A stretch of DNA of 64,000 nucleotides from an uncultured Candidatus Saccharibacteria bacterium (GCA_964517625.1 CAZFBW010000002.1:25893-89892); one strand, 5' to 3'. Positions 663 through 29,543 are shown, numbered from the stretch's first letter. The notes: generated by a model from the letters alone, not told the origin. Numbers and translations are program-made.

Positions 663-3152
663 ATGGCAAAAAAGAGTTCACAACCTGAAAGAAACCAAGA
701 AAATAAGGATAATTCACCAGCTAGTACTGGTTTTAAATCTGTTGATATTTCTCATGAAATGCGTGTTGCGTACTTGGACTATGCGATGAGTGTGATTACC
801 TCGCGTGCGCTTCCTGATGCTCGCGACGGCCTTAAACCAGTGCACCGCAGAATTTTGTTTGCAATGAATAAAATGGGTCTTAGTCCAGGAGCAAAGTTTC
901 GTAAATCAGCATCCATTGTTGGTGAAGTACTTGGTAAGTACCACCCACACGGAGACGCATCTGTATACGATGCCATGGTAAAGTCAGCACAAGATTTTTC
1001 ATATCGTTACCCACTTGTTTTTGGACAAGGAAACTTTGGTTCACTTGATGGTGATGGAGCAGCGGCGATGCGTTACACCGAAGCGAAAATGTCAAAAGTA
1101 TCTATGGAGATGCTTCGTGATATCGAAAAAGAAACCGTACAGATGGTGCCAAACTATGATGGTACAGAAAAAGAACCATCAGTACTTCCAACAGCTGTGC
1201 CAAACATGCTTTTAAACGGTACCCTTGGTATTGCGGTTGGTATGGCGACCAACATCCCGCCACACAACCTAACGGAAGTTGTTGATGCGACAATTCACTT
1301 GATTGATAATCCGCAAGCAACAACCGAAGATCTCTGTGAGTATGTAAAAGGACCAGACTTTCCAGTTGGTGGTGTTGCATTTGGACAATCAGATATTCGC
1401 CAGGCCTACGCAACAGGACGAGGTGGTGTGGTTACGCGAGGTGAAGCGGAAATTGTTGAAACTAAAAACGGACAATTCCAAATTATCATTACCTCAATCC
1501 CATACCGTGTTTTAAAAAGTAATTTGATTGAAAAAATTGCAGACCTTGTTCACGAAAAGAAATTGGAAGGTATCAAAGGGCTTCGTGATGAATCAACCAA
1601 AGACATTCGCGTGGTGATTGATTTGAAATCAGGCGCGCAACCGCAGAAGGTTCTTAACTATTTGTATAAACATACGGAACTTGAATCAACGTTCCACTTC
1701 AACATGGTTGCGCTTGTTGACGGTGTTCCACAAACGCTTTCCCTTAAAGGCGCAATTTCTTCATTTATTGATCACAGAAAAGAAGTTGTTCGTCGTCGTA
1801 CGGAATACGATTTAAAACGCGCGCTTGAACGCGAGCATATTTTACTCGGTCTTAAAAAAGCGCTTGATCACATTGATGAAATTATTAAAATCATCAAGAA
1901 ATCAAAAGATACTCCAGATGCTCACGCACAATTGATGAAGGCATTTAAGTTCTCCGATATTCAAGCAACGGCAATTTTGGAAATGAAATTACAGCGCTTA
2001 GCCGGCCTTGAACGAAAGAAGATTGAAGATGAACTAAAGGCGGTACAGGCTCTCATTGCCGAACTAAAGAGTATTCTTGCGTCGGTAAAGAAGATGAATG
2101 CCATTATCAAGAAAGAGCTTGAAGAGATTAGAGAAAAATACGGCGATGAACGCCGAACAAAAATCGTAAAGCATAAAGCGAAAGAATTTAATCCAGAAGA
2201 TTTGATTCCAGAAGCAGAACAGGTGCTTGTATTTACTGCTGGCGGATACGTAAAGCGAACCGACCCTTCAGAATTTAGAACACAAAAGCGCGGGGGTGTG
2301 GGTGTGGTTGATATGAACACAAAAGAAGAAGACTTTGTGGTTATGTCGCTCACCGCTTCAACACACAGCGACCTCTTGTTCTTCACCGACAAAGGAAAAG
2401 CATATCAAATCAAAATGTATGACCTTCCAGAAGGTAAGCGCGCAACACGCGGAAAATCAATCATGAATTTCCTTCAGTTAACTGATGGCGAAAAAGTGAC
2501 ATCAATACTTCCGATGCCAAAAGACATGAAAGGCAAAGTCGATGAACACATTTCACTCATGATGATTACCAAAGAAGGTACCGTGAAGAAATCAACCGCT
2601 TCAAGCTTTACTGACGTACGCCGAAACGGACTCATTGCTATTCGATTGGAAGATAAAGATGAATTGCTTGCAACACTGTTTGTGTCTCAAAATGACAGCG
2701 TGATTCTTACAACACAAAACGGTCAGTCAATTCGTTTTAATCACAATGACGTTCGCGAAATGGGACGCACCGCAGCGGGTGTGATTGGTATGAAGCTAGA
2801 TAAGGGCGATGTAATCGTGGCGGCGGATAAAATTATTGATGGAACAAAAGGCGGAGAACTTCTCATCATGACTGCAAATGGCTACGGGAAGAAGACAAAA
2901 CTTTCTGAATACAAGATTCAAAAGCGCGGTGGAAGTGGTATTAAAACAGTGAAGATTACGCCAAAAACCGGTAAGCTCATGGTCGCACGTGTTGTTACCG
3001 GAGAAATTGAGGACCTACTCGTCGTTTCAAAGGAATCACAAGTGATTCGTACAGAAATTTCTTCAATTCCAACCCTTGGACGTGATACGCAAGGCGTGCG
3101 CGTGATGAAGATGAGGGAAGGGGATTCTATCGCATCGTTTGACGTTTTGTAA
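663..3152 (+). CDS. gyrA: DNA gyrase subunit A
   Basis: 829 aa; motifs [26 protein letters not shown] and [16 protein letters not shown]; C-terminal beta-pinwheel repeats. Confidence 0.95.
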
Positions 3153-3203
3153 AAAGCTAAAAATTACCCCATCTACGTTGTTGCAACTTCATTTTCGTCT
3201 TTC

Positions 3204-3226
3204 AACGTACTTGAAGTACGTTTCAT
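3204..3226 (+). terminator. hairpin after gyrA (8-bp stem AACGTACT/AGTACGTT)
   Basis: Perfect inverted repeat followed by TCATT; first of two hairpins in the gyrA 3' intergenic region. Confidence 0.35.
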
Positions 3227-3286
3227 TCCAAAAATCCGTGGCGCCCCGTATCTGGTTCAATTTTTACCTTTTTTAAAAATTCGGAC

Positions 3287-3319
3287 CGAGGAGACGACCG
3301 CGTAGCGGTCGTCTCCTCG
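3287..3319. terminator. strong 15-bp perfect hairpin (CGAGGAGACGACCGC-gta-GCGGTCGTCTCCTCG) with no U tail on the + side
   Basis: Perfect palindrome seen directly; the T/A-rich tract lies on the upstream side, so function is ambiguous (terminator or protein-binding site). Confidence 0.35.
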
Positions 3320-3363
3320 TATCCACTAGCAACTAGCAACTATTACCTATAAACTATAGGTAT

Positions 3364-3885
3364 ATGTTTCTCACCCCAGATCATCTTGTTAAAGAACTCT
3401 ATTTGAAGCCGGGCGACAAAGTAGCCGACATTGGATGTGGAACCGGTGCGTATACAATCGCACTTTCTCGAGAAGTTGGAGAAGTTGGCCAGGTTTACGC
3501 TGTTGATGTTCATCGTGACATGCTTCATACACTTTCAAATAATTGTGCGCGGTTTAGTATTCAAAATGTGGATGTTGTCTGGGCAGATATTGAAAAGGGG
3601 ACCCCGCTTGAAAAATACAGCCTGGACGCTTGTGTGCTTTCTAATGTTTTGTTTCAACTTGAAGAGCACGGGAAAGCACTGCGCAACATTCACATGCTCT
3701 TAAAACCCGAAGGGCAGTTGCTCGTTGTTGACTGGAGCCAATCGCACGCAGGCGCCGGTCCACACCCAGCACACGTTATAAGCGAGGCGCGCGCCGAAGA
3801 GTTGGCTCAAGAAAATGGTTTTCGTATTATTAAGCGTTTGCCAGCAGGGAGTTATCATTACGCATTTATAGCACTTTCCGTGTAA
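3364..3885 (+). CDS. class I SAM-dependent methyltransferase
   Basis: Motif I VADIGCGTGAYT; 173 aa typical small MTase fold. Confidence 0.8.
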   Translation: MFLTPDHLVKELYLKPGDKVADIGCGTGAYTIALSREVGEVGQVYAVDVHRDMLHTLSNNCARFSIQNVDVVWADIEKGTPLEKYSLDACVLSNVLFQLEEHGKALRNIHMLLKPEGQLLVVDWSQSHAGAGPHPAHVISEARAEELAQENGFRIIKRLPAGSYHYAFIALSV

Positions 3886-3897
3886 ACTGTACCGTAT

Positions 3898-5202
3898 ATG
3901 AGTATCTTTAAAATCATCATTACCGCTGTCGGCATCATCGCTGCGATTTTCTCCGTTTTGATTTTTTCTGGAAAACTTTCAATAGGAACTGCGTCTAAAA
4001 CACCACAAGGAAGTATCGTTATTTGGGGGACACTACCACAGGACGAGATGAGCAATTTTTTCTATTCATACATGAGTCAGGCAAAGGGTCAGCAAGTAAC
4101 ATATCAATTCGTTAAGGAAGATCAGTTTGCTGAAGCTCTTGTGGAGGCTCTCGCAAGTGGTGTTGGACCTGACGCAATTATTGCGCCGTACCAACTTATT
4201 TTAGAACAAGAAAAAAGGGTGTATCCATTTCCACAAGCATCGTTTCCACAAAAAACATATCGCGATATGTATGTTGATGGAGCATCAATCTTTTGGACAA
4301 ATAGAGGAGCGCTTGCACTTCCTATCGCAATTGAACCAATGGTGTTGTTCTTTAACCGAACCTTGCTCGCTAAACACGGAGTGGCGCTTCCACCTGAGTA
4401 CTGGGATGAATTAAATGATATGGGTCCAAAACTCACCATTCTTACCCAACAGGGGGTGTTTACGGAAAGTGCGATTGCGCTTGGTGCATACGGTAATGTT
4501 TTGTATGCAAAAGATATTTTGACAACGATTATTGCTCAGCTTGGGCAAGCGGTTGTTGTTAAACAAACATCGCAAGACGGCAAAGATAGTTACAGTGTGA
4601 CCGCAAATGCCCCGCTTCAAGAAGGGGGGGATGTGTTACCACTTGCAACCGCCCTTCGCTTCTTTATGGAATTTTCAAATCCAACAAAAATAAAATATAC
4701 CTGGAACCAATTTTTACCAAACGCGCAGGACCAGTTCGTTGCTGAAAAATTAGCTCTCTATGTTGGTTACTATGGTGAAGCAAAAACCATGCGCGAACGA
4801 AACGGGAGAATCGATTTTGATGTGGCTGTGCTTCCACAAACACGCGGATACAACACGCTCGTGACCGGTATGAAACTCTACGGTATGGCAACACTCCTTG
4901 CTGCACGCAACAAGGAAGTTTCGTTTGCGGTTCAATCAGCGCTCGCGTCAGCTTCGTGGTCAAACGTTCTTGCTCCGACAATTGGCGCGCTTCCTCCACA
5001 GCGCGTGTATGTGCAACAACCAAATGTTCCGGAGGTGGTCAAGAAGAGTCTGCTCGTCGCTCGTGGGTGGTATGATTTGAAACCAAGAGATTCCTCTCCT
5101 TTGTTTGAGACGATGGTGCGTGATGTGACAAGTGGTCGTGTTGAGGTGTCTGAAGCAGCGAGCCAGTTTGTACAGCGCTTGCGTGCAAAGTATACTAACT
5201 AA
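3898..5202 (+). CDS. membrane-anchored extracellular solute-binding protein (SBP_bac_1-like)
   Basis: N-terminal TM/signal anchor; segments IVIWGTLPQDEM, GVGPDAIIAPYQLI and NRTLLAKHGVALPPEYWDELNDMGPKLT resemble ABC sugar-binding proteins. Confidence 0.55.
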   Translation: MSIFKIIITAVGIIAAIFSVLIFSGKLSIGTASKTPQGSIVIWGTLPQDEMSNFFYSYMSQAKGQQVTYQFVKEDQFAEALVEALASGVGPDAIIAPYQLILEQEKRVYPFPQASFPQKTYRDMYVDGASIFWTNRGALALPIAIEPMVLFFNRTLLAKHGVALPPEYWDELNDMGPKLTILTQQGVFTESAIALGAYGNVLYAKDILTTIIAQLGQAVVVKQTSQDGKDSYSVTANAPLQEGGDVLPLATALRFFMEFSNPTKIKYTWNQFLPNAQDQFVAEKLALYVGYYGEAKTMRERNGRIDFDVAVLPQTRGYNTLVTGMKLYGMATLLAARNKEVSFAVQSALASASWSNVLAPTIGALPPQRVYVQQPNVPEVVKKSLLVARGWYDLKPRDSSPLFETMVRDVTSGRVEVSEAASQFVQRLRAKYTN

Positions 5203-5204
5203 CT

Positions 5205-5918
5205 ATGAAACTTAAAGCTATAATTTTGGCATCGCTTGTTACGGTAAGTATTGGCGCTTTGTTTGCTCAAGGGCAACTATCGGGGGATGCGGTGTGTGGT
5301 GCGGGGGATAAGGCGTGTACCTTCGCAGATCTTAAGAAAATTCTTTCAAGTACATTTCTTTTTCTTCTTCAGATCGCAATTGCTTTTTTGCTTCTCATGA
5401 TTATGTATTCTGCCGCGCAAGTAATGACATCCCAAGACAAAGCGGGCGCACTTAAAGAAGCAAAGACGAGACTGTGGAACGTTCTTCTTGGTTTTTTACT
5501 CATTACTCTTGTTGCAGGCGGGGGATACCTTGCTTTCTTGTCATACTTTAATATCGAGAGTAAATTCCTAACCCCTATTACAAATCTTTTTTCGGTGAAT
5601 CTTTCTGATGTGTTGCCGTTTGCACAGGCGCACGCACAAGATGCGGAAAAGCTTCCAAATCCGCTCGGCACAACAACTAATCTTTTTGACTTTTTGGGAA
5701 TGCTCGTCTCACTCGTGATTCGATGGTTCGTGTTTCCAGTGATTATCTTTTCATGGTTATACACTGGTTTCCAATATGTCTACGCGCAGGGTAATCCCCA
5801 GAAATTGATGGAAGCACACAAATGGCTCTGGTGGACACTTATCGGAACTTTTACTATTATGTTAGCAGAGGGGTTCACTCTCGCTTTACAGGGAACCTTT
5901 AAACAATTTTTCTCATAA
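5205..5918 (+). CDS. secreted two-helix membrane protein, internally duplicated VirB2/TrbC-like (T4SS pilin-like) module
   Basis: Signal peptide MKLKAIILASLVTVSIGALFA; contains two copies of the pattern [hydrophobic helix]-[charged loop ...K..LW..L.G]-[hydrophobic helix] shared with the next three ORFs. Confidence 0.5.
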   Translation: MKLKAIILASLVTVSIGALFAQGQLSGDAVCGAGDKACTFADLKKILSSTFLFLLQIAIAFLLLMIMYSAAQVMTSQDKAGALKEAKTRLWNVLLGFLLITLVAGGGYLAFLSYFNIESKFLTPITNLFSVNLSDVLPFAQAHAQDAEKLPNPLGTTTNLFDFLGMLVSLVIRWFVFPVIIFSWLYTGFQYVYAQGNPQKLMEAHKWLWWTLIGTFTIMLAEGFTLALQGTFKQFFS

Positions 5919-5926
5919 CTATTTTT

Positions 5927-6427
5927 ATGTTCAAACATCCTTTCATCCTTAGTTTTATTCTTGCAAGTATCGGTGTACCACTACTTGTTTCTGCACAAAC
6001 AAACTTCTCTTCACTTGGAACACTCATCGGTAATTTCCGAACAAACGTTGTAGAAGCACTCGGCATGCTTGCAATTACCGCCGCGGTCGTTGCTTTCTTT
6101 TTCGGCGTTGTACAGTTTATTTGGGCTTCACGCGAGGGAAAGGATACAGAAATGACAAAAGGGAAGAATTTCATGCTCTGGGGCCTTATTGCGCTTTTCG
6201 TGATGTTTTCTGTCTGGGGTATTATCAAGTTTGCACAAAGCTTTTTTGGACCCGACATGTCAAGTACAAACATTACCATCCCATCGTTTAAATTTAATGG
6301 AAGCAGTGGACCAGGGCCAGTCGCAGGAGATAAGAAGCCCGCTGGAAGCGCTTGTGCAAATGGTAATGAGTGCCAAAGCGGTAGTTGTGTCTATATAAGC
6401 CCTGACGCTGGTAAACAATGTAATTAG
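5927..6427 (+). CDS. VirB2/TrbC-like (T4SS pilin-like) secreted protein with Cys-rich C-terminal tail
   Basis: Signal peptide then LAITAAVVAFFFGVVQFIWASREGKDTEMTKGKNFMLWGLIALFVMFSVWGII; C-terminus CANGNECQSGSCVYISPDAGKQC has 4 Cys. Confidence 0.5.
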   Translation: MFKHPFILSFILASIGVPLLVSAQTNFSSLGTLIGNFRTNVVEALGMLAITAAVVAFFFGVVQFIWASREGKDTEMTKGKNFMLWGLIALFVMFSVWGIIKFAQSFFGPDMSSTNITIPSFKFNGSSGPGPVAGDKKPAGSACANGNECQSGSCVYISPDAGKQCN

Positions 6428-6516
6428 TCAAGAAAAGCACTCTGTGGATAGAACGCCTTGATTTACTTGCTAATCTCTAGCGCTTGGATATACTTACTAG
6501 TATAGATAAAAATAAT

Positions 6517-6885
6517 ATGAAAAAGATACTTACAACGGTTTCGGGTATTGTTTCTAGCGTTGGTTTTGCGTTTGCGCAAACAGCGCCTGGCCAGGGTTTG
6601 ATTAACTTGCTTAATTTGGCACAAAATATTACTAACCGACTCATACCAATCCTCATGGGTCTCGGGGTTGCTGCTCTTTTCTTCGGTCTCGTGATGTACA
6701 TTTGGAAGGGACGCGAGGACAAAGTTGAACACGAAAAGTGGATGAAGTTTATCGGCGCTTCAATTGTTGCCATTTTCGTAATGGTTTCTATTTGGGGGCT
6801 TGTTAGATTCTTCGGAAGTATTGTTGGTGTTGATGCTGTTGGTGCTCCAAACCCAGCAAACCTCATTCCAATGCCTACTAATTAA
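6517..6885 (+). CDS. VirB2/TrbC-like (T4SS pilin-like) secreted protein
   Basis: Start moved to MKKILTT (the ORF-track ATG at 6484 lies in a promoter-like TATACTTACTAGTATAGAT); signal peptide ...AFA/QT then LIPILMGLGVAALFFGLVMYIWKGREDKVEHEKWMKFIGASIVAIFVMVSIWGLV. Confidence 0.5.
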   Translation: MKKILTTVSGIVSSVGFAFAQTAPGQGLINLLNLAQNITNRLIPILMGLGVAALFFGLVMYIWKGREDKVEHEKWMKFIGASIVAIFVMVSIWGLVRFFGSIVGVDAVGAPNPANLIPMPTN

Positions 6886-6899
6886 TCGTTGTACGTATC

Positions 6900-6933
6900 A
6901 AACAAAACAGCGCGCAAGGCGCTGTTTTGTTTT
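6900..6933 (+). terminator. rho-independent terminator (AAACAAAACAGCGC-gcaag-GCGCTGTTTTGTTTT)
   Basis: GC stem plus T tract immediately after the stop of the 6517-6885 ORF. Confidence 0.6.
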
Positions 6934-6936
6934 AGT

Positions 6937-6945
6937 GGTATACTT
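6937..6945 (+). promoter_or_regulatory. extended -10 element TGGTATACT
   Basis: Located between the terminator and the ATG at 6983. Confidence 0.4.
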
Positions 6946-6982
6946 TCGGAAAAGGTATCAACATATATTTGACCCCTATATT

Positions 6983-7300
6983 ATGAAAAAATTTTTCGTA
7001 CCATGCTGTAGTTTACTCGCTAGCACCAGTTTTGTTCTTGCTGTTACTGGTGATCAGCTCTATCAAAATGTCATGAAGACGCTTTTTGAACCGCTCATTC
7101 AGTTTGCAATCTTTCTCGCCTTTCTTTACTTTTTGTATGGCGGATTTATGTTTGTTGTTAATTTGTACAATCAAGATGCCGACAAAATGAATGCAGGCAA
7201 GAGACACTTGTTGTGGGGGACGATTGGCCTTTTCATCATGCTTTCCATTGGTGGAATTCTAAGTTTGATTAACACAACACTTGGTGGGAACTTTCAATAA
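6983..7300 (+). CDS. VirB2/TrbC-like (T4SS pilin-like) secreted protein
   Basis: Start at MKKFFVPCC (in frame with ORF-track 6800..7300, whose upstream part overlaps the previous gene and the terminator); LIQFAIFLAFLYFLYGGFMFVVNLYNQDADKMNAGKRHLLWGTIGLFIMLSIGGIL. Confidence 0.5.
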   Translation: MKKFFVPCCSLLASTSFVLAVTGDQLYQNVMKTLFEPLIQFAIFLAFLYFLYGGFMFVVNLYNQDADKMNAGKRHLLWGTIGLFIMLSIGGILSLINTTLGGNFQ

Positions 7301-7326
7301 TTCTTTGTGTTAGAATAAGACAACAT

Positions 7327-8733
7327 ATGGCTGAAACTACAACTACGGAAACAACAATGGAAAAAATTGTATCGCTTTGTAAAAGGAGGGGGTTTATTTT
7401 CCCTTCTTCTGAGATTTACGGTGGTTTTTCTGGTGTGTACGATTATGGCCACTATGGAACACTTTTGTTTAATAATGTAAAACAAGCATGGTGGAAGGCG
7501 ATGGTTCAAGAGCGTCTCGATGTTGTTGGTGTGGATACGGCAATTTTTATGCATCCAACAACATGGAAAGCCTCAGGACATGTTGATGGTTTTGATGACC
7601 CACAAATTGATTGTCGAAAATGTAAAAGCCGTTTTCGTGCAGACCACGTACTTGAAAGCTTTTCTGTTAATGCGGATAAGCAGTCGATTGAATGGATTAA
7701 CACCGAACTCGACAAACTTCGAGCCGACAAGAAGCTTGTTTGTCCAAATTGTAATAGTGCCGACCTTACGCCGGCGCGCAAGTTTTCTTTGATGGTTAAA
7801 TCAAATCTCGGATCGCCAGTTGACGAACTTTCCGAAGAAAATGTTGTATATTTGCGACCAGAGACATGTGGTGGAATTTATCTTGAATATAAAAATACTA
7901 TCGACACACTTCACCCAAAGCTTCCGTTTGGTATCGCCCAAATCGGTAAAGCATTTAGAAATGAAATTGTTGCTAAGCAATTTGTATTTAGAACACGAGA
8001 GTTTGAACAAATGGAAATGCAATATTTCCATCACCCGTCACAGACGAAAGAAATTTTTGAGAAGTGGCAAAAAGATAGATGGGCATTTTATTTAGAATAT
8101 GGAATTCCAGAAACAAAACTGCACTGGTATAAACATGAAAAACTCGCCCATTATGCTTCAGAGGCGTACGACATTGAATATAATTATGCAATGCTTGGTG
8201 GATTTAAGGAGCTCGAAGGCGTACACGCGCGAGGGGATTGGGACTTATCACAACATAGTAAGTTTTCCGGTATTGATTTGTCATATTTTGATGAAGCAAC
8301 CCGTGAACGATTCATGCCCCACATTGTAGAGACATCGGTTGGTGTTGCGCGTACTGTACTTGCATTTATTGATAGCGCGTACACGGAAGAAGAAGTGGAA
8401 GGAGAAACTCGCGTTGTACTTAAATTAGACAAGCGACTGTCTCCAGTTAAGGTGGCCATCTTACCACTTTCAAAAAAAGAAGAACTTACTAAACCAGCAA
8501 AAGATTTGTTCGCGACATTATCCAAAAAAATGTTTGTTGAATACGACGAAACACAGTCAATCGGTAAGCGCTATCGCAGGCAGGATGAAATTGGAACGCC
8601 GTATTGTGTGACCGTTGACTTTGACACGCTTACCGACAATAGGGTTACGGTGCGCGACCGCGACACTATGAAGCAAGAACGTATCGCAATTGCTGAACTT
8701 GCACACTATCTACAGGAAAAACTAGAGAAGTAA
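7327..8733 (+). CDS. glyQS: glycine--tRNA ligase (dimeric class II type)
   Basis: KRRGFIFPSSEIYGGFSGVYDYGHYG N-terminal signature; 468 aa; true start may be the internal MEKIV at 7357. Confidence 0.9.
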   Translation: MAETTTTETTMEKIVSLCKRRGFIFPSSEIYGGFSGVYDYGHYGTLLFNNVKQAWWKAMVQERLDVVGVDTAIFMHPTTWKASGHVDGFDDPQIDCRKCKSRFRADHVLESFSVNADKQSIEWINTELDKLRADKKLVCPNCNSADLTPARKFSLMVKSNLGSPVDELSEENVVYLRPETCGGIYLEYKNTIDTLHPKLPFGIAQIGKAFRNEIVAKQFVFRTREFEQMEMQYFHHPSQTKEIFEKWQKDRWAFYLEYGIPETKLHWYKHEKLAHYASEAYDIEYNYAMLGGFKELEGVHARGDWDLSQHSKFSGIDLSYFDEATRERFMPHIVETSVGVARTVLAFIDSAYTEEEVEGETRVVLKLDKRLSPVKVAILPLSKKEELTKPAKDLFATLSKKMFVEYDETQSIGKRYRRQDEIGTPYCVTVDFDTLTDNRVTVRDRDTMKQERIAIAELAHYLQEKLEK

Positions 8734-9904: not shown

Positions 9905-10363
9905 TTGTTCTCTGTCTGGAGGTGTTACGTGACTGAAAAATCCGACAAGGTGTATCCGCTTTCTGTTTCCAATCCCGACTCTGGCCACCTAGTTTGGCAT
10001 TCAGTACTTGACGGGAAGTATCTCGTCGAGGTTGTTCGTCCTGTGGTAGTACCTGAAGAACTGAAGATTGCTGTGCCGGATGAGGCACAGTTATCTTCCT
10101 TGCTTTGGTATTGTGGAGAATTGTTCATTTTTGAAAACGCCGAGCCACACACGTTGCTTCACAGGCAAGTTGTGCATCTAGCGTATGGGGCTCAGTTTGG
10201 TCCAGATATGAGTGATGTGTCATTGTGGCAAGATCTTTGCATTGCTTTCATTGACGGCACAATCGATGAGTTTTACATCAACAATCCGGAAATGAAAGAT
10301 TTAACTGTTGAGAGCATTGTCGAAGCAAAAGCCAGCCTTCTCAAAGTACTTAAGGGTTCTTGA
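9905..10363 (+). CDS. hypothetical protein
   Basis: 152-aa soluble ORF; no motif recognised. Confidence 0.35.
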   Translation: MFSVWRCYVTEKSDKVYPLSVSNPDSGHLVWHSVLDGKYLVEVVRPVVVPEELKIAVPDEAQLSSLLWYCGELFIFENAEPHTLLHRQVVHLAYGAQFGPDMSDVSLWQDLCIAFIDGTIDEFYINNPEMKDLTVESIVEAKASLLKVLKGS

Positions 10364-10381
10364 AGAAAAAATAAATATTTC

Positions 10382-10407
10382 AAAGCCGCTAAACAAGGCG
10401 GTTTTTT
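10382..10407 (+). terminator. hairpin plus T6 after the 9905-10363 ORF
   Basis: AAAGCCGC-taaacaag-GCGGTTTTTT. Confidence 0.4.
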
Positions 10408-10433
10408 CTTTTGAGCGGGCCCACAAGGATTCG
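10402..10433 (-). repeat. direct-repeat copy of the tRNA-Trp 3' end plus 3' flank (32 nt, identical to 10558-10589)
   Basis: TTTTTTCTTTTGAGCGGGCCCACAAGGATTCG occurs twice; this copy lacks the rest of the tRNA. Confidence 0.6.
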
Positions 10434-10502
10434 CCTCTCTCTTTGGTCGAGACTTGTAATTTCAACAGCTTGAGTACAAGCTAAGAAATTATGTCGCCTT
10501 CG

Positions 10503-10519
10503 GTTCGAATCCTTGTGGA
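10503..10519 (+). repeat. inverted copy of the tRNA-Trp T-arm/acceptor segment (GGTTCGAATCCTTGTGG)
   Basis: 17-nt exact reverse-complement match to part of the tRNA-Trp gene, 53 nt downstream of the tRNA 3' end. Confidence 0.55.
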
Positions 10520-10557
10520 AAATCCGAGCAAATGAAAAAAGACGCCGAGCAAGCATC

Positions 10558-10589
10558 TTTTTTCTTTTGAGCGGGCCCACAAGGATTCG
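10558..10589 (-). repeat. second copy of the 32-nt repeat; overlaps the authentic tRNA-Trp 3' end
   Basis: Identical 32-mer as 10402-10433. Confidence 0.6.
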
Positions 10590-10642
10590 AACCTTGGTCT
10601 GCGGTTTTGGAGACCGATATACTACCACTGTACTATAGGCCC
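10572..10642 (-). tRNA. trnW: tRNA-Trp (anticodon CCA)
   Basis: Reverse complement GGGCCTATAGTACAGTGGTAGTATATCGGTCTCCAAAACCGCAGACCAAGGTTCGAATCCTTGTGGGCCCG; loop CUCCAAA; 7-bp acceptor, T-arm CAAGG/CCTTG, G73; no encoded CCA. Confidence 0.8.
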
Positions 10643-10778
10643 GTGTCGGGTTATTCTAGCATATAATTGCCGAGATTAAACGATGTTCTTGTGAGTGTTA
10701 GAATTTAATGGTAGAGTGATTTTTGTCAGCACAACACCAACACGCTGACGTTGTACTTTGTTGGAGAGGGAGGACTAT

Positions 10779-10946
10779 ATGGGAAAACCATATACGATTC
10801 CATCATATCGGGAAGACCCGGCGTTCTACGATGATTGCATTCTAAACTACATCCGAGAGCTTGCATGGCTTGAGGATCAGGTGACGCTTGCATCAACGCA
10901 GAAGCCATCTCTTTCTGATTATGATGGCGAAACACCCGAGGAGTAG
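10779..10946 (+). CDS. hypothetical small acidic protein
   Basis: 55 aa from the ATG preceded by a strong SD GGAGAGGGAGG (unusual in this window); sits next to the tRNA-Trp repeat region. Confidence 0.3.
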   Translation: MGKPYTIPSYREDPAFYDDCILNYIRELAWLEDQVTLASTQKPSLSDYDGETPEE

Positions 10947-12409: not shown

Positions 12410-13492
12410 ATGTTACTTTCTTTTAATAAAAGAGGCATTACTGATGCGATTGGACTTGATATTGGAACATCCTCTATCAAGGTTGTTCAGCTAAAACTTG
12501 AACGAGAAAGTATTGTCTTGGAAACGTATGGCGAGGTCGCTCTTGGTCCGTACGCTGGGCTTGCGATTGGGCAGGCAACGCAACTAGGCGATGAAAAACT
12601 TTTGGAAGCAATTGCTGATTTGTTTAAGGAAGCAAAAGTTACTTCAAGGAATGCAACACTTTCTATTGATTCTTCCGGTGTGTTCGTTTCGGTGGTGCGT
12701 GTACCAAAGGTGGCTGATGCGGAATTAAAAACCATGATGCCACTCGAGGCGAAAAAATTTATTCCAATTCCACTCTCGGAAGTGCAAGTTGACTGGTGGC
12801 ATGTTCCGCCGGGACCTGCTGAAAAAGCGTTAGGGGATGATGTGAATATAAAAAATATGGACATGGTTTTGGCGGCGGTGAAAAATGATATTTTGGAAAT
12901 GTATAACCGTGTTGTGACCAAGCTTGGGTTTGTTGGTACGGAGTTTGAAATTTCTGGCTTTAGTCTTATACGAAGCGTGGTTCCAAAATCAGACGGGCTC
13001 ATGTTGTGCGTGGATATTGGCGCAAACCAGACCACGATTAGCCTCATTCGGTCAAATATCGTTATTGACATGCACGTGTTAAGCAAAGGGTCTCAAGACA
13101 GTACGATTCAAATTTCTCAGTCGCTTGCCATCCCCATCGAAAGTGCGGAAGAGGTGAAGAGAACATTCGGTTACAATGGCGACGCAGCAAATCCATACCT
13201 CAAAGAAGTCATGGAACTTTCTAGTTATCCACTGTTTGGCGAGGTGGCAAGACTATCACTAATGTTTGAAAGAAAGTATAATCAGACTATAGAAGGAGTA
13301 ATCCTTGTAGGGGGAGGTGTGCGTTTACCGGGCTTTATGGATATGTACGGAAAAGTCGTACATGCACCAGGGCGTACCGGTGCACCGTTTGACCAAGTTA
13401 GAATCCCCGAGTTTTTAAATGACATGATGAAACAAGTCGGACCTTCATACGCAGTTGCCGTCGGACTTGCTCTCAAAAAACTACTCTCGTAA
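12410..13492 (+). CDS. pilM: type IV pilus assembly protein PilM (actin-like ATPase)
   Basis: GLDIGTSSIKVVQLK N-terminus; 360 aa. Confidence 0.85.
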   Translation: MLLSFNKRGITDAIGLDIGTSSIKVVQLKLERESIVLETYGEVALGPYAGLAIGQATQLGDEKLLEAIADLFKEAKVTSRNATLSIDSSGVFVSVVRVPKVADAELKTMMPLEAKKFIPIPLSEVQVDWWHVPPGPAEKALGDDVNIKNMDMVLAAVKNDILEMYNRVVTKLGFVGTEFEISGFSLIRSVVPKSDGLMLCVDIGANQTTISLIRSNIVIDMHVLSKGSQDSTIQISQSLAIPIESAEEVKRTFGYNGDAANPYLKEVMELSSYPLFGEVARLSLMFERKYNQTIEGVILVGGGVRLPGFMDMYGKVVHAPGRTGAPFDQVRIPEFLNDMMKQVGPSYAVAVGLALKKLLS

Positions 13493-13497
13493 ACCCT

Positions 13498-14226
13498 ATG
13501 GACGTATCATTTCAGCCAAAATCAACAATGCCGGAGGACGTAAAGAAGGGTCCTTCACTTGCTGAAATATTTTCAGGAATTGTGCACATGTATGTCGGTG
13601 ACAAGAAAAGCATTATTGCTATTTTTTTCACCGTCGTTATTGTTTTTGTACTTATCGGAATTGGCGGAATGATGGCACTCAACTCCTCGCTTCAAAGTGA
13701 GGTGTCTACGCTCAAAGCACAACTCGACAATAAAGACGGACAGGTCATGAAGCCGGCTGCTATTGCTGAAATCAAAGCACTTTCCGATCGTGTAAAGCTA
13801 GTTACACTCATTGTTAAAGGTCAGCCGTTTATGACGACATTCTTGAAGCTTTTGGAGTACAGTGTCGAAGATGACATTGTCTTTGAAAAAACCACGCTTG
13901 CGTTCATTAACACTCCAGGTAAGGGAGATACGTATGCTATATCAATTGATGCAAAAGCAAACAGGTACTCTGCTGTTCTTAACCAGTTCCAAACATTGCA
14001 AGAACAAGCACCATACAATAAGTTCTTTACAGAGGTACGCATGAATAACTTTGCTGTTGATAAGGAAGGAAAAATTTCTTTCAAGATAACAGGAAATGCG
14101 CTTGTTGCTGGTCCAAATCTCACCCCAGAGGAGGTGGAAAAAGAATTGCTTAAGGTTCTCTCTGTTGGTGAGTTGCCAACGAGCGGAGATAGTGGCACAC
14201 CAGTTCCACCAACTACACCACAATAA
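13498..14226 (+). CDS. pilN: PilN-like pilus assembly protein (single TM, coiled coil)
   Basis: N-terminal TM IIAIFFTVVIVFVLIGIGGMMAL then coiled coil; position after pilM. Confidence 0.55.
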   Translation: MDVSFQPKSTMPEDVKKGPSLAEIFSGIVHMYVGDKKSIIAIFFTVVIVFVLIGIGGMMALNSSLQSEVSTLKAQLDNKDGQVMKPAAIAEIKALSDRVKLVTLIVKGQPFMTTFLKLLEYSVEDDIVFEKTTLAFINTPGKGDTYAISIDAKANRYSAVLNQFQTLQEQAPYNKFFTEVRMNNFAVDKEGKISFKITGNALVAGPNLTPEEVEKELLKVLSVGELPTSGDSGTPVPPTTPQ

Positions 14227-14228
14227 CT

Positions 14229-14792
14229 ATGTCACCAAAATATTTCATTATCCTCCTCATCCTGCTCGCTGTGGTCTTGGTGCACCAGGTATTTATGCCT
14301 CTTTATTCTGGCAACGGTTCGACACTCTATCAGCCAGCAAAAGGGTATGTACAACTCAAACAAGAGCGTGCGAGTTATACAAGTTCTCTTAGCGAGGCGG
14401 ACAAGGTTATCGCTCAAGCAAATGAATTAAAGAAAAAATATGAAGGAGTCGACAAGGCAAATGTCGAACTTCTCAAGGCAATGGTTCCAGATAGTATTAA
14501 TGAAGTTAAGCTTCATAGTGAAATAGCCTCTATTTTGACGGCGTCAGGATTTTCTTCCGAAAAACTTTCAATCACTAAAAAGGGTGCATCATTAATACCA
14601 GGTATCGGGGTGTATCTCGTTTCTATTTCGTTGGAAGATTCTTCATATGAACGATTGAAAACTATTCTCAACACCCTCGAACGTAGCCGAAGAATTCTTT
14701 CAATAAAAAGTATTAGTGTAACCCCGGCTGCAAAGGTCGGAGAAATTTACAAGTTTGAATTAGGAATTGAAACGTTTTACATCATGAAGTAA
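14229..14792 (+). CDS. pilO: PilO-like pilus assembly protein
   Basis: Single N-terminal TM, coiled coil, C-terminal domain; position after pilN. Confidence 0.55.
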   Translation: MSPKYFIILLILLAVVLVHQVFMPLYSGNGSTLYQPAKGYVQLKQERASYTSSLSEADKVIAQANELKKKYEGVDKANVELLKAMVPDSINEVKLHSEIASILTASGFSSEKLSITKKGASLIPGIGVYLVSISLEDSSYERLKTILNTLERSRRILSIKSISVTPAAKVGEIYKFELGIETFYIMK

Positions 14793-14813
14793 ATAGTTTC
14801 TTTATACACCACC

Positions 14814-15152
14814 ATGCCACCAACCACTCCTACACCAACTACACCGAAGAACAACACCAGTAAACTGGTCATTGAGATTGTCGCAGGACTTCTTGTTCTT
14901 GTTGTCGGGTATTTTGGGTACACAATGTTTTCTGATAGTTCTGCTTCTACGCAAGCGGTATCTAATGTACAACTTGGTAAAAATTTATCTAGCTTTGCAA
15001 AAGAAAGCAAAGGAATTAGTTTAGACTTCTCAATTCTCGAAACAGCGTATGTTAAAAGTCTCGAAGACCACACACAAATCTTTACGTATTCAACAAGACG
15101 CGGTCGTTTAGATCCGTTCTTGCCTTATGATTCTACTAGACCTATTCGTTAG
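14814..15152 (+). CDS. hypothetical single-TM protein in pilus locus (possible PilP-like)
   Basis: Pro/Thr-rich N-terminus, TM LVIEIVAGLLVLVVGYFGY; overlaps the pilB start by 26 nt. Confidence 0.35.
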   Translation: MPPTTPTPTTPKNNTSKLVIEIVAGLLVLVVGYFGYTMFSDSSASTQAVSNVQLGKNLSSFAKESKGISLDFSILETAYVKSLEDHTQIFTYSTRRGRLDPFLPYDSTRPIR

Positions 15153-16866
15153 CCAGAATAAGCTCACCGATCTTGAGGCAAAAGAAATCGAAGCAGACCT
15201 TCACGACCACGAAGGGACAGTAATCGATGATTTGCTCAAGGCGAAAAATATAACTGATGATGATATTCTTCAGGTTCGTTCGGTGTTGTATGGCTTACCT
15301 ATTTTTTCTGGGAAAATTTCACAAGATGTATCGCTCACAAAATATTTAAATAAACAACAGTCTCGTCAGTTGATGGCACTTCCGCTTTCGATGGATGACA
15401 AGATGCTCTCCGTTGGTATTGTTGATCCAGAGTACGCGCACGTTCTCGACAGTCTTCAATTTTTGTTTGGACCATCACACCAGGCGTATAAGTTGTATCT
15501 CATTAGTTATCAGGTGTATAAAGACACGCTTGGTATTAAAGGGAAACAAGAAAGTCTTGCCGAACAAGTTGACGAAGAGGGGGATCAGTTGAGTTATGTT
15601 GCCAAAGAAGGGGACATCAACAAAAAACAACAGGAAGAGGAAGACGTTGACTTGTCCTCCGTCAACCCGGACCTTGACCAGGAGCTTACTAAGATGCAGG
15701 CGCCGGAGATTTTCAGCACCATGCTTCGTTATGCGATTGATAACGGTGCCAGCGACATCCACATTGAACACGTGGGGACGGCGGTGCGTGCGCGTATTCG
15801 TATTGACGGTGTACTCGATACCGCAACTACGCTTCCTGCAAAGCACCACTCTTCACTTCTTGCTCGTATTAAAATTCTTTCCGGTATGAAGCTTGATGAA
15901 AAACGAAAACCGCAAGACGGACGTTTTAGTACAAAAATCGGTGAACGCGCTATCGACTACCGTGTGTCGACATTCCCTGGGTATTACGGAGAAAAGGTGG
16001 TAATCCGTATTTTGGACAGTTATCGAGGTGTGCGTGATATTAAGACTATTGGACTTACGGAATCAAATATGGCTGCGATTAATGAAGCGCTCGGTGTTTC
16101 ATATGGTATCATTCTCATTTCTGGCCCGACCGGTTCTGGTAAAACAACCACACTGTATTCAATGTTAAACGAAGTAGACCGTGACCATCAAAACGTGGTT
16201 TCTCTCGAAGACCCGATCGAATATAACATGCCTTCTATGAACCAGTCTCAAGTGTTTCCAGAAATTGGATACACGTTTGCTTCAGGTCTTCGTTCTATCT
16301 TGCGTCAGGACCCGGATGTAATTATGGTGGGAGAAATTCGTGACGTCGAAACCGCAGAGCTCGCCATTCAAGCGGCGCTTACCGGTCACTTGGTGTTCTC
16401 TACCATCCACACCAACACGGCAATTGGTGTTATCACGCGTTTGCTCGACATGGGTATTGAACCGTATCTTATTGCGCCAACCATCAAACTCGCCATGGGT
16501 CAGCGTTTGGCGCGTACTATTGTGGAAGGGTGTGCTAAGCCAATGAACATGACTGCTGGACTAAAAACAATGATAGATAATCAGTTTAAAGATTTGCCGA
16601 TGACATATAAATCAAAGTTACCGCTCGATAAGCCGTTCCATGAAGCAGTTGCGTCCGAAAAGAGTCCGACAGGGATTAAAGGCCGTATGCCGGTATTTGA
16701 AGTGCTTACTTTTACTGAAGAAATTCAGGAAGCGGTAACACTCAGAAAAAGTGAAGACGAAATCTGGAAACTGGCTCGTGCCCAAGGGTACATGACGCTC
16801 AAGGAGGACGCAATCATTAAATGCATTGAAGGAAGAATTCCGTTCATTGAACTTGCGGCACTTTAA
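15127..16866 (+). CDS. pilB: type IV pilus assembly ATPase PilB (GspE family)
   Basis: Walker A GPTGSGKTTT, His-box, GSPII_E N-terminal domain; 579 aa. Confidence 0.9.
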   Translation: MILLDLFVSQNKLTDLEAKEIEADLHDHEGTVIDDLLKAKNITDDDILQVRSVLYGLPIFSGKISQDVSLTKYLNKQQSRQLMALPLSMDDKMLSVGIVDPEYAHVLDSLQFLFGPSHQAYKLYLISYQVYKDTLGIKGKQESLAEQVDEEGDQLSYVAKEGDINKKQQEEEDVDLSSVNPDLDQELTKMQAPEIFSTMLRYAIDNGASDIHIEHVGTAVRARIRIDGVLDTATTLPAKHHSSLLARIKILSGMKLDEKRKPQDGRFSTKIGERAIDYRVSTFPGYYGEKVVIRILDSYRGVRDIKTIGLTESNMAAINEALGVSYGIILISGPTGSGKTTTLYSMLNEVDRDHQNVVSLEDPIEYNMPSMNQSQVFPEIGYTFASGLRSILRQDPDVIMVGEIRDVETAELAIQAALTGHLVFSTIHTNTAIGVITRLLDMGIEPYLIAPTIKLAMGQRLARTIVEGCAKPMNMTAGLKTMIDNQFKDLPMTYKSKLPLDKPFHEAVASEKSPTGIKGRMPVFEVLTFTEEIQEAVTLRKSEDEIWKLARAQGYMTLKEDAIIKCIEGRIPFIELAAL

Positions 16867-16926
16867 GGCCTGGATAGACAAAGTTATTCAATTGCTCTCT
16901 TTGTATACACTGATATACTTCTTATT

Positions 16927-17985
16927 ATGAACTACGACGTAGAATTAAACGACATCATTATGACGCTTGTGAAGGAAAGCGGATCAGATGTCCATTTTAC
17001 TGTGGGAGCTTTTCCGACACTTCGTATTAATGGCGAACTTGTTCCACTTACAAGAAAAACAGAACTTGTCCCAGAAGATACAGTTGGATTTTTGCGTTCA
17101 ATGGTAAGTGAAAAGAAATTTACTGACTTTGTTGTTAAACAAGAACTCGACTTTTCATATGATCACGCAGGGGAATATCGTTTGCGAGGGAATGCCTCGT
17201 TCCAAAAAGGATTTATTTCTATTGCCCTTCGTTATGTGCCGAAAGTAAAGAATTTACAGGAACTTAATTTACCACCACAAATTTCTGAAATGGCGCGCAA
17301 AAAGCAAGGATTTTTCCTCGTGGTTGGTCCAGTTGGTCAAGGAAAGTCAACAACACTTGCTGCGATGATTTCTATGATTAACCAAGAATCAAAGCGCCAT
17401 ATTGTTACGATTGAAGATCCAATTGAATACCGCTTTGATCAAGATAAATCGCTTATTGAGCAACGCGAAGTCGGTATTGATACGGAAAGTTTTGGTACGG
17501 CACTTCGGCAAATTTTCCGCCAAGACATGGACGTGATTATGATTGGGGAAATGCGCGACAAAGAAACAATTAGTATCGCCGTGACCGCTGCGGAAACAGG
17601 ACACTTAGTTTTGTCGACACTTCACACCAACTCTGCAGCGCAAACTGTTGATCGTATTATCGATTCATTCCCAGCAGAACAGCAGGGGCAAATCAGAACC
17701 CAGCTCGCAGCATCACTTCTCGGAATTTTTTCTCAACGCCTGCTTCCAAGAATTTCTGGTGGTATGATTCCCGCGTATGAACTTCTTATCAATAATTCCG
17801 CAGTCGCAAACCTTATTCGTGAAGGAAGGACGCAGGAAATCGACGTGGTTATTGAAACAGGAACCGATCAGGGCATGATTGATTTCGATAGACATCTAGC
17901 AGAACTTGTTCGTAGGGGGGAAATTTTGAAAGACACCGCTCGTGCACACGCACGCAGACTAAACTTGTTCGATAGAATAATTTAA
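16927..17985 (+). CDS. pilT: twitching motility (retraction) ATPase PilT
   Basis: Walker A GPVGQGKSTT; 352 aa; PilT-type C-terminus. Confidence 0.9.
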   Translation: MNYDVELNDIIMTLVKESGSDVHFTVGAFPTLRINGELVPLTRKTELVPEDTVGFLRSMVSEKKFTDFVVKQELDFSYDHAGEYRLRGNASFQKGFISIALRYVPKVKNLQELNLPPQISEMARKKQGFFLVVGPVGQGKSTTLAAMISMINQESKRHIVTIEDPIEYRFDQDKSLIEQREVGIDTESFGTALRQIFRQDMDVIMIGEMRDKETISIAVTAAETGHLVLSTLHTNSAAQTVDRIIDSFPAEQQGQIRTQLAASLLGIFSQRLLPRISGGMIPAYELLINNSAVANLIREGRTQEIDVVIETGTDQGMIDFDRHLAELVRRGEILKDTARAHARRLNLFDRII

Positions 17986-17993
17986 ATTCCAGT

Positions 17994-19238
17994 ATGCTTT
18001 TCCACTACACCGCACTTGCAAAAGATAATACCCGTCAAGAGGGTGATATTGAGGCACTTTCTAAAGATGCTGCGGTGACAGAATTGCAGGCTCGTTCATT
18101 TTCTGTTTTAGCAATTGAAGAGAAAGAAGCTGGAGGGTTTGACATGAATGAAATAAGTAAGTTGTTTAAGCCGAAAATCAAAACAAAAGAGATCGTAATC
18201 TTTTCACGTCAGGTGGCAACCCTCTTTGAAGCGGGTGTGCCCGCACTTAAAAGTTTTAGATTACTTGCCTCGGAACACGAAAATCCGACATTTAAGGAGC
18301 AGTTGGTTGGCGTATCTGATGATATTGAGGCCGGAACATCGCTTTCGCAGGCGCTTCATAAACGACCAGAGATTTTCTCACCATTTTTCGTAAACATGGT
18401 GAAGTCTGGTGAAGAAAGTGGAAAATTAAATGACGTTTTCCTTTTCTTGGCAGATTACATGGACCGCGAATATGAATTGCGTCAAAAGACGAAGAAAGCA
18501 CTTACCTATCCGATATTCGTTGTCGGTACCTTTTTTGTAATTATGAGTGTTATGTTCATTTTCGTTATTCCAAAAATGACAGCACTTTTCCTAGAACAGG
18601 GTGCCGATCTTCCAACGGTGACTAAAATTGTGATTGCAATTTCCAACTTTTTTGTTGATTATGCAATTATTATCTTTCCGGGTATCATTGTCGGACTATT
18701 TTTCTTTAATCGCTGGACCAAAACCGAAGAAGGGGCTTTTAAGTTCGATAAATTTAAGATTGAGGCTCCGGTTATTAAGAACCTTACACAAAAAACTTTC
18801 TTGGCCCGCTTTGCGGACAACATGAATACGATGCTCACGAGTGGTATTCCAATTGTGCGTGCTATTGAAATTACTGCAGACGTTGTGGAAAACGCATACT
18901 ATCGCGACATGATGCTTCGTGTTGCTGGAAAGGTGCAGACGGGTACAACCTTTTCCAAGGCCCTTGCTGATGAAGATAACTTGCCAAACATTTTGATACA
19001 AATGGTGCGTATTGGTGAAGAAACTGGAGAATTAGGGTATATTTTGAAAAACTTGGCAGTGTTTTATAAACGTGAAGTGGAAAATGCAATCGACGGTATT
19101 ATCGGTCTTATTGAACCAGCCATGATTGTAGGTCTTGGTGTTGCGGTGGCAATTCTCGTTTCGGCAGTACTCCTTCCAATGTACAGTTTGTCAGACTCAA
19201 TTGCGCAGATTGACGTTATTCTCACCTTGTTTGTCTAA
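17994..19238 (+). CDS. pilC: type IV pilus platform protein PilC (GspF family)
   Basis: Two repeats of GspF domain; 414 aa; polytopic. Confidence 0.85.
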   Translation: MLFHYTALAKDNTRQEGDIEALSKDAAVTELQARSFSVLAIEEKEAGGFDMNEISKLFKPKIKTKEIVIFSRQVATLFEAGVPALKSFRLLASEHENPTFKEQLVGVSDDIEAGTSLSQALHKRPEIFSPFFVNMVKSGEESGKLNDVFLFLADYMDREYELRQKTKKALTYPIFVVGTFFVIMSVMFIFVIPKMTALFLEQGADLPTVTKIVIAISNFFVDYAIIIFPGIIVGLFFFNRWTKTEEGAFKFDKFKIEAPVIKNLTQKTFLARFADNMNTMLTSGIPIVRAIEITADVVENAYYRDMMLRVAGKVQTGTTFSKALADEDNLPNILIQMVRIGEETGELGYILKNLAVFYKREVENAIDGIIGLIEPAMIVGLGVAVAILVSAVLLPMYSLSDSIAQIDVILTLFV

Positions 19239-19362
19239 AAATAGGAAAATAGGCAAAATATGGTTTTTTGAGATATCCACATATTTAGCCTTTATTTATT
19301 GCGGTTAGGTTTGGTGGGGGGTATACTTATAAGTATCTATTTACAAGATAGAATAAAAAATT

Positions 19363-20070: not shown

Positions 20071-20084
20071 TCTACGTTAGTTAC

Positions 20085-20873: not shown

Positions 20874-20876
20874 AGA

Positions 20877-22288: not shown

Positions 22289-22291
22289 CAT

Positions 22292-23047: not shown

Positions 23048-23050
23048 TCT

Positions 23051-29381: not shown

Positions 29382-29452
29382 AGCGGGGTAGAGTAGAGGT
29401 AACTCACGAGGCTCATAACCTCGGGACACAGGTTCGATTCCTGTCCCCGCAA
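29382..29452 (+). tRNA. tRNA-Met (CAU), initiator-like (1:72 A-A mismatch, CCCCGCAA 3' end)
   Basis: AGCGGGGTAGAGTAGAGGTAACTCACGAGGCTCATAACCTCGGGACACAGGTTCGATTCCTGTCCCCGCAA; cloverleaf checked by hand. Confidence 0.8.
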
Positions 29453-29460
29453 CAAGCAAA

Positions 29461-29511: not shown

Positions 29512-29543
29512 AATGGTGTACTATAATGTGTAAGTTAATAGAA

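Follow-up and report, generated by a model that had tools for sequence, protein, structure and literature searches.

A 64,000-nucleotide stretch of DNA from an uncultured Candidatus Saccharibacteria bacterium (GCA_964517625.1 CAZFBW010000002.1:25893-89892), hereafter the window, carries at positions 5205-7300 a tandem array of four genes encoding small membrane proteins, designated P1 to P4 in array order, which an earlier note on this DNA had likened to the pilins of type IV secretion systems (T4SS). The analysis presented here indicates that these proteins are probably four anciently diverged paralogues of the Pfam family PF18895 (T4SS_pilin), acting as subunits of a patescibacterial T4SS pilus with its motor encoded elsewhere, and that their genes form part of an operon that is passed on vertically and begins with an orphan solute-binding protein (SBP) anchored in the membrane. 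This reading builds on the identification of PF18895 as the top family for all four proteins, on their paralogy, on the predicted helical hairpin and on the restriction of homologues to Patescibacteria. It builds also on published PF18895 arrays in this group (Quinonero-Coronel et al. 2025, Microb Genom, PMC12102498), among them an essential array inside the T4SS cluster of strain ML1 (Wang et al. 2023, Cell, PMC10633639), and on the presence of VirB4 in most Patescibacteria, including a genome that bears the operon (GCA_001823925.1), together with a type IV coupling protein (T4CP)-like ATPase in a metagenome-assembled genome (MAG) that holds two of the related loci (L019 and L035). Lastly, it builds on a conserved operon, the SBP gene lying immediately before the array in 59 of the 66 loci compared, on the positional orthology of the paralogues and on a remote, in-register similarity to VirB2 that reaches at best a probability of 68% in hhalign comparisons.

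Family membership and architecture of the array proteins

PF18895 was the best Pfam family for each of the four proteins. Against a gathering cut-off of 26.6 bits, P1 (29.8 bits, in two separate stretches) and P2 (27.6 bits) scored above the threshold; P3 (23.3 bits) and P4 (23.1 bits) scored below it, with PF18895 as the top family of P3 and the sole Pfam match of P4. Despite these sub-threshold scores, P3 and P4 are considered to belong to the family because phmmer searches tie both of them to P2 (E = 4e-13 for P3 and 5e-9 for P4, with Z = 1000). P1, to which the other paralogues are only 16-23% identical, is too diverged for pairwise detection by phmmer, and is counted in the family on the basis of its PF18895 score in two stretches and of the alignment of its orthologues, which matched the P2 family in hhalign with 94% probability (E = 1e-7). 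As judged from these sequence comparisons, the PF18895 membership of the array can be taken as established and the four genes as genuine paralogues. A second family, the Mbov_0395 pilin-like conjugal transfer protein of NCBIfam (NF045849), was matched by P4 at E = 6e-5, its best NCBIfam match, and was also among the matches of P1-P3, all four at sub-threshold scores of 13-23 bits against a cut-off of 40 bits. All homologues identified came from Patescibacteria/Paceibacteria, and they mark the source organism as a Patescibacterium of the Paceibacteria/Nomurabacteria type. The suggestion of the earlier note that the array encodes members of a T4SS-pilin-like family, for which it had proposed a HMMER search of Pfam as a check, is therefore supported by the Pfam result.

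Hydropathy analysis revealed a common layout. All four N-termini comprise a lysine-rich n-region and an h-region ending in A-Q (A-V in P4), from which, together with the hydropathy profile, signal peptides and cleavage sites were predicted. The h-region is followed by two hydrophobic peaks of ~19-25 residues, with Kyte-Doolittle means of 2.0-2.5, that flank a loop rich in K, R, E and D. These predictions agree with the signal peptide, two hydrophobic helices and charged loop previously attributed to each protein. P1 contains four such helices, corresponding to two modules, which is in keeping with the claim that it carries the module twice and with its two PF18895 stretches. The residue pattern that had been proposed as shared by the array was compared with the consensus of the P2-family alignment (...VAFFFGIVQFIW..R.G.......GK.FMLWGLIALFVMFSVWGII), which comprises 94 sequences (92 database homologues plus P3 and P4); the pattern matches this consensus, and agrees well with P2 and P3, partly with P4 and poorly with P1.

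Two of the paralogues depart from the simple hairpin. In P1, module 1 (aa 1-146, 5205-5642) bears a conserved cysteine pair (C31/C38) and module 2 spans aa 147-237 (5643-5915), with a linker that retains an A-x-A-Q motif in the orthologue alignment. More distant genomes encode the two modules in two adjacent single-module genes, and the window P1 hence corresponds to a fused pair of this kind. In P2, the signal peptide is followed by a hairpin (aa 30-106); a Gly/Ser/Pro linker spanning aa 107-133 then leads to a mini-domain at the C-terminus (aa 134-166, nt 6326-6424) that contains the four cysteines pointed out in the earlier note. An AlphaFold2 model of P2, computed from the 94-sequence alignment, predicted helices at 30-70 and 73-106, with a predicted local distance difference test score (pLDDT) of ~84-91 over the hairpin, a disordered linker (pLDDT <50) and a compact Cys mini-domain (pLDDT ~89-90). 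The tails of P2-type proteins are hypervariable in both length and cysteine content, with 0 to 18 cysteines among the 92 database homologues; in the related loci described below, P2-type open reading frames (ORFs) reach up to ~555 aa, and repeated 4-Cys modules are found in some species. A known domain was sought for these Cys-rich tails, and the matches obtained (Dickkopf_N, EB and Dumpy (DPY)) were all below threshold. The window also encodes, at 50795-51700 (-), a DsbA-like protein with a thioredoxin fold (Thioredoxin_4/DSBA), which could be a source of extracytoplasmic disulfides for the P2 tail and the P1 Cys pair.

The relationship of the array to the classical pilins VirB2 (Agrobacterium T-pilin) and TrbC (RP4), which define PF04956, was assessed with hhalign against seven annotated VirB2/TrbC genes taken from plasmids. 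The best match was obtained for the positional orthologues of P3 (68% probability, E = 4.8e-5 over 68 columns), followed by the P2 family (22%), the P2 positional orthologues and the pooled array members (15% each), the P4 orthologues (8.5%) and the orthologues of P1 module 2 (3%). Where the alignments were inspected, they paired both helices and the A|Q cleavage site in register with VirB2. The window proteins share with VirB2/TrbC a long Sec signal, an A|Q site, two helices separated by a short basic loop and a length of ~70-120 aa after processing. They differ from them in a loop that is ~9 residues longer and in a monoderm host. The gene context also differs: all seven genes fetched lie directly upstream of virB3 and six of them follow a lytic transglycosylase gene, whereas the window array is flanked by the SBP gene and glyS, with no adjacent virB1, virB3 or virB4. 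The sequence comparison makes homology to classical VirB2 plausible, and the connection between PF18895 and VirB2 rests in part on two members of the array of Candidatus Southlakia epibionticum ML1 that match both PF18895 and PF04956 (Table S2, PMC10633639).

Since the proteins are small and hydrophobic, and since they show weak sub-threshold Pfam matches to families such as XhlA (E = 0.23), they might in principle be unrelated membrane peptides of the holin-like, bacteriocin or immunity type; a complete type IV pilus cluster located at 12410-23671, 5 kb downstream, would alternatively make them parts of that system. Both explanations are considered highly improbable. Holin and bacteriocin families yielded sub-threshold noise only (XhlA, and Clavanin at E = 0.53), and the array has no lysis, toxin or immunity genes as neighbors and sits among housekeeping genes. 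The N-terminal signals are of the Sec type, and none of the four proteins matches N_methyl (PF07963), whereas the genuine type IV pilins encoded in the window at 19363, 21569 and 22292 do; the proximity to the type IV pilus cluster, moreover, is not kept in loci L002, L004, L081 and L082. Both the holin/bacteriocin and the type IV pilin readings were rejected for lack of profile support and for the wrong class of signal peptide, and a clear likeness to another family, which the earlier note had named among the observations that would speak against its proposal, was not seen, since none of the holin, bacteriocin or type IV pilin families scored meaningfully.

Conservation of the operon and of individual paralogues

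The genomic context of the array was analyzed in 66 related loci from species-representative genomes, all of them Patescibacteria, which were re-annotated with the window proteins and family hidden Markov models (HMMs). In 59 of the 66 loci the array was immediately preceded by the SBP gene, with a median gap of 8 nt between the SBP stop and the start of the first pilin gene. Among the seven exceptions, four are contigs cut short and three (L035, L044 and L057) come from genomes in which the operon is present at another locus. Relatives that are 43-71% identical (three P2-homologue loci) likewise have their genes in the order gyrA, methyltransferase, SBP, pilin array, glyS, rpmG. More broadly, the locus follows gyrA in nearly all loci, most of the 59 loci have the methyltransferase gene ahead of the SBP gene, and glyS lies downstream in the nearer relatives. 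Where no contig end interrupts the locus, the array itself comprises three to seven genes. A reverse test that started from two SBP orthologues (L081 and L082) recovered the same operon. In both of these loci an extra PF18895 gene (9594-9953 in L081, 9580-9951 in L082) is located between the methyltransferase and SBP genes, which places the SBP gene inside the array. The SBP gene is the conserved first gene of this SBP-pilin operon. In a more distant clade, a gene convergent on the end of the array (6278-7882 (-) in L060, with homologues in L062, L066 and L077) encodes a protein of 321-534 aa. The L060 protein shows a sub-threshold match to the lysozyme-like family SLT_3 (PF18896; E = 9e-6), the L077 member has no Pfam match, and the product could be a VirB1-like wall hydrolase.

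The SBP matched PF01547 (SBP_bac_1) with 45.5 bits against a cut-off of 26, and its closest relative in the PDB is a sugar ATP-binding cassette (ABC) transporter SBP (5u2p_A, E = 7e-9). Its translation shows a single N-terminal hydrophobic segment, and the position of the array directly after a membrane-anchored SBP-like protein, as described in the earlier note, was confirmed by this match and by the end of the SBP gene 2 nt upstream of P1. SBP orthologues are ~430 aa long and 46-83% identical, with a mean column identity of 63%; the SBP is much better conserved than the pilins, and its N-terminal hydrophobic segment contains residues that are invariant in the orthologue alignment. No ABC permease or ATPase (BPD_transp, ABC_tran) adjoins the SBP in the window or in the Pfam-annotated related loci.

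Positional orthology of the array members was assessed across 60 loci from species representatives. The best matches of the window paralogues were found at the same relative position in other arrays, with P1 first, P2 second, P3 third or penultimate and P4 last. P1 is the first array gene in ~52 of the 60 loci, P2 is usually the second, and P4 is the last in most related loci, where it typically measures 84-105 aa. Because each paralogue has a positional orthologue across these loci, the copies are older than speciation and individually maintained. A recent tandem amplification of the array was ruled out by this positional orthology, and the sequence data suggest that the paralogues are long-standing specialized copies as opposed to recent variant cassettes.

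These observations bear on the possibility that the array is a cassette for antigenic or host-range variation, in which the tandem copies would be interchangeable variants of a single pilin. The low identity of the other paralogues to P1, the change in array size from three to seven between species and the hypervariable P2 tail are all compatible with such a role, towards which the published interpretation for Patescibacteria leans (PMC12102498). It is nevertheless regarded as quite unlikely. Each paralogue is retained as a positional orthologue, which argues against the variation-cassette interpretation of PMC12102498, and the array occupies a fixed housekeeping context, after gyrA and, in nearer relatives, before glyS. 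Furthermore, the variation resides in the tail of one member and is not array-wide, and a six-frame profile search of the window found no silent or partial cassettes, no search for repeats having been made.

Search for a T4SS motor and comparison with known systems

One difficulty for a T4SS pilus is the location of the machinery that would assemble it. The absence of VirB4 and VirD4 from the window, remarked upon in the earlier note, was corroborated by a Pfam scan of essentially all window ORFs of at least 70 aa. In the related loci, unassigned ORFs of at least 400 aa were screened by length and for a Walker A motif, and the larger or Walker-A-bearing ones were analyzed with Pfam. The large ORFs near arrays that had been considered as VirB4 candidates proved to encode IF-2, ClpB, HsdR, Hsp70, PrkA, NrdD, aminoacyl-tRNA synthetases and similar proteins. 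The exception was found in a separate locus, L035, where a 904-aa T4CP-like ATPase (4650-7364; TraG-D_C, TrwB_AAD_bind) is encoded 2.8 kb upstream of a pilin gene (10163-10861). This pilin is a P2-like singleton amid housekeeping genes (adk, map), and belongs to the same MAG as operon locus L019; the pair may form part of a dispersed T4SS of this lineage. VirB4 has been reported in 2,417 of 3,035 Patescibacteria genomes (80%), dnaA and dnaN being among the commonest virB4 neighbors in most classes, Paceibacteria included, and the typical Paceibacteria set comprises VirB2, VirB4, TrsD and PrgI (Table S3, PMC12102498). The Zambryskibacteria genome GCA_001823925.1, listed as 'VirB4: Yes' in the same survey, holds operon locus L059, and no VirB4 was identified there within ~9 kb of the array.

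A working model can be outlined in which each precursor would be exported by the Sec pathway and cut by signal peptidase I at A|Q (A|V in P4), the residues of this predicted site matching those of the real VirB2 site. The mature protein would form an alpha-helical hairpin, as predicted, in the cytoplasmic membrane, presumably oriented so that its two ends face outward and the K/R-rich loop faces inward. The subunits would then be extracted and polymerized into a pilus-like surface fiber by a VirB4-type T4SS whose genes lie in another part of the genome, a step suggested by the family assignment and the literature. Consistent with their positional orthology, the paralogues would fulfill distinct conserved roles, such as major and minor or adaptor subunits, and would not be interchangeable. 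P2 would display its hypervariable, disulfide-rich C-terminal module on the outside, where it might plausibly provide a surface for host contact, and the co-transcribed SBP would be a conserved partner, either as a ligand- or host-binding component or as an assembly factor.

Several results weigh against the assignment of the array to a T4SS pilus. None of VirB4, VirD4/T4CP, VirB6, TrsD, PrgI or a relaxase was detected in the window, nor was any T4SS ATPase or channel gene found within ~10 kb of the arrays in related loci, so that the motor for the array of the window has to be assumed to lie outside the 64 kb analyzed. None of the four proteins matched PF04956 (TrbC/VirB2) even at E <= 1, and similarity to experimentally proven pilins is weak, with most hhalign runs giving probabilities in the range of 3-22%. 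The VirB2/TrbC resemblance put forward in the earlier note hence stands for architecture and register, and does not extend to a PF04956 match or to strong profile similarity. Searching PDB sequences with the P2-family profile returned no match even at E <= 10, and a Foldseek search of the PDB with the AlphaFold2 model returned generic helical hairpins (best E = 0.047) and no pilin, this being a method that is uninformative for a two-helix protein. To our knowledge, a pilus made of PF18895 proteins has been demonstrated in no organism, and we know of no described T4SS that features a strict SBP linkage. Reviews credit such systems with no more than the 'potential to elaborate conjugative pili'.

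The same results lend some weight to a T4SS-independent envelope module, in which the SBP and the two-helix proteins would form a membrane complex of their own for uptake, sensing or adhesion, with the hairpins as SBP partner; for this lineage the name given to PF18895 would in that case be a misnomer. The close coupling of the SBP gene to the array in 59 of 66 loci, including its embedding in L081 and L082, fits such a module, as do the lack of T4SS genes within ~10 kb of the arrays and of an ABC permease or ATPase beside the SBP, the far stronger conservation of the SBP relative to the pilins, with its invariant N-terminal-segment residues, and the constant position of each paralogue from species to species, which would be expected if they were subunits of a defined complex. 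On the other hand, PF18895 genes are found inside T4SS clusters or near virB4 elsewhere (in 1,135 of 1,948 assemblies, in the Paceibacteria set of Table S3 and in Southlakia ML1), no transport permease is known to consist of two-helix hairpins, the operon lacks an energizing component, and at least one operon-bearing genome has VirB4. Overall, such a module is thought to be unlikely, and the T4SS pilus with a distant motor is preferred.

Arrays of PF18895 genes are already on record in Patescibacteria, and the window array adds another example. Using PF18895, 441 VirB2-like arrays of 2-11 genes were described in 383 assemblies, with a mean identity between array members of ~25%; they were most abundant in Microgenomatia and Saccharimonadia and were read as possible variation, and the pilin gene was not near virB4 in 813 of the 1,948 assemblies examined (PMC12102498). 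The window array conforms to these in the family criterion, the size range and the low identity, and differs in its SBP partner and positional orthology, neither of which appears in the main text of the survey ('substrate-binding' has 0 occurrences). In the Saccharimonadia strain ML1, the array SEML1_0014-0019 comprises six essential PF18895 genes inside a T4SS cluster, beside PrgI-like and VirB6-like genes and without an SBP, and no relaxase was recognized in the system (PMC10633639). It resembles the window array in consisting of tandem, small and sequence-divergent PF18895 proteins of a Patescibacterium. In contrast to it, the window array lies more than 10 kb from any T4SS gene, is closely coupled to an SBP gene, counts a two-module fusion and a protein with a Cys tail among its members, and has no protein that matches PF04956, compared with two in ML1. 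The pilin-like proteins Mbov_0395/MMCAP2_0565 of Mycoplasma integrative and conjugative elements (ICEs), represented by NF045849, are likewise small two-helix proteins of monoderm, MPF-FATA-type systems, but are ICE-borne, whereas the window array is chromosomal and set among housekeeping genes. Several divergent pilin genes in tandem are found also in the VirB2 clusters of Bartonella and Anaplasma phagocytophilum, for whose paralogues a role in antigenic variation or host adaptation has been proposed (PMC12102498); the window paralogues differ from these in that each is kept as a positional orthologue across species.

The linkage of SBP and array, the positional orthology, the fused two-module pilin and the hypervariable Cys-rich tail of a single paralogue are not described in the publications on such arrays considered here (e.g. 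PMC12102498). Patescibacteria are obligate, metabolically minimal epibionts. A T4SS and its pilin array have been found to be essential in one tested species of this group (PMC10633639). The present results suggest that in Paceibacteria the pilin paralogues are ancient, individually conserved and inherited at a constant position in the chromosome, apart from the motor, and that the arrays are paired with a highly conserved orphan SBP. The SBP linkage is the lead most worth following: if the SBP belongs to the pilus apparatus, it would offer a handle on what the system recognizes or takes up from the host, such as a ligand or a host surface glycan, and the hypervariable Cys-rich tail of P2 is a candidate determinant of host specificity. 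A bolder, and in our estimation doubtful, extension is that VirB2-like pilins of Paceibacteria have been uncoupled from the T4SS cluster and fixed, along with an orphan, membrane-anchored SBP of the sugar type, in an operon that is inherited vertically throughout the class and would build a separate surface device. Such a device might take the form of a pilus or filament combining a solute- or host-glycan-binding protein with a hypervariable Cys-knot tail that captures host material, or of a membrane complex that pairs the hairpins with the SBP and involves no T4SS. If true, it would represent a new pairing of a binding protein with conjugative-type pilins and would bear on nutrient acquisition by auxotrophic epibionts.

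Gene layout and other features of the window

The ORF list confirmed the four consecutive genes at the starts previously proposed (Table 1). For P3, a TTG at 6484 is an alternative to the ATG at 6517; the genes called in a public protein collection correspond exactly to the four array products, and the ATG starts at 6517 and 6983 are therefore favored over longer alternatives. The genes are tightly spaced at the head of the operon, with 12 nt between the methyltransferase and SBP genes, 2 nt between SBP and P1 and 8 nt between P1 and P2, followed by gaps of 89 nt before P3 and 97 nt before P4; glyS starts 26 nt after P4. A scan of 3100-7500 for promoters and terminators returned numbers of sites not above those in shuffled sequence, and operon boundaries could hence not be called from it. 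A search of all six frames of the window with the family HMM identified no further copies beyond the four genes.

Table 1. Coordinates of the array, its upstream neighbors and the type IV pilus cluster in the window
Feature	Position	Strand	Description
Methyltransferase gene	3364-3885	+	small class I S-adenosylmethionine-dependent; Pfam Methyltransf_31/11/25
SBP gene	3898-5202	+	membrane-anchored family-1 solute-binding protein, sugar/UgpB-like type
P1 (pilin-like paralogue 1)	5205-5918	+	237 aa; two modules, four predicted helices
P2 (pilin-like paralogue 2)	5927-6427	+	166 aa; predicted hairpin and 4-Cys tail
P3 (pilin-like paralogue 3)	6517-6885	+	122 aa from ATG; predicted hairpin and short Pro-rich tail
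P4 (pilin-like paralogue 4)	6983-7300	+	105 aa from ATG; shortest, predicted signal peptide and hairpin only
PilM	12410-13492
PilB	15127-16866
PilT-like ATPase	16927-17985
PilC	17994-19238
Three N_methyl pilins	19363-20070, 21569-22288, 22292-23047
Prepilin peptidase	20172-20873

Housekeeping genes identified with Pfam in the window include gyrA, glyS, ligA, leuS, gatA/C, smc, rnr and genes for pentose-phosphate enzymes. The type IV pilus cluster is close to the array only in the closest relatives (L006 and L015). No other RNA families were found in the window at the Rfam gathering score besides the tRNA genes, which comprise Trp(CCA) at 10571-10642 (-) and two tRNA-Met(CAT) and one Asp(GTC) at 29382-29857 (+). 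An ORF of 509 aa (42658-44187), located between an rpoD-like sigma-factor/HARE-HTH gene and a YceG gene, had no Pfam match at E <= 0.001. A 462-aa protein encoded at 27937-29325 contains bacterial thrombospondin type 3 (TSP3_bac) repeats and is probably a secreted or surface Ca-binding protein.

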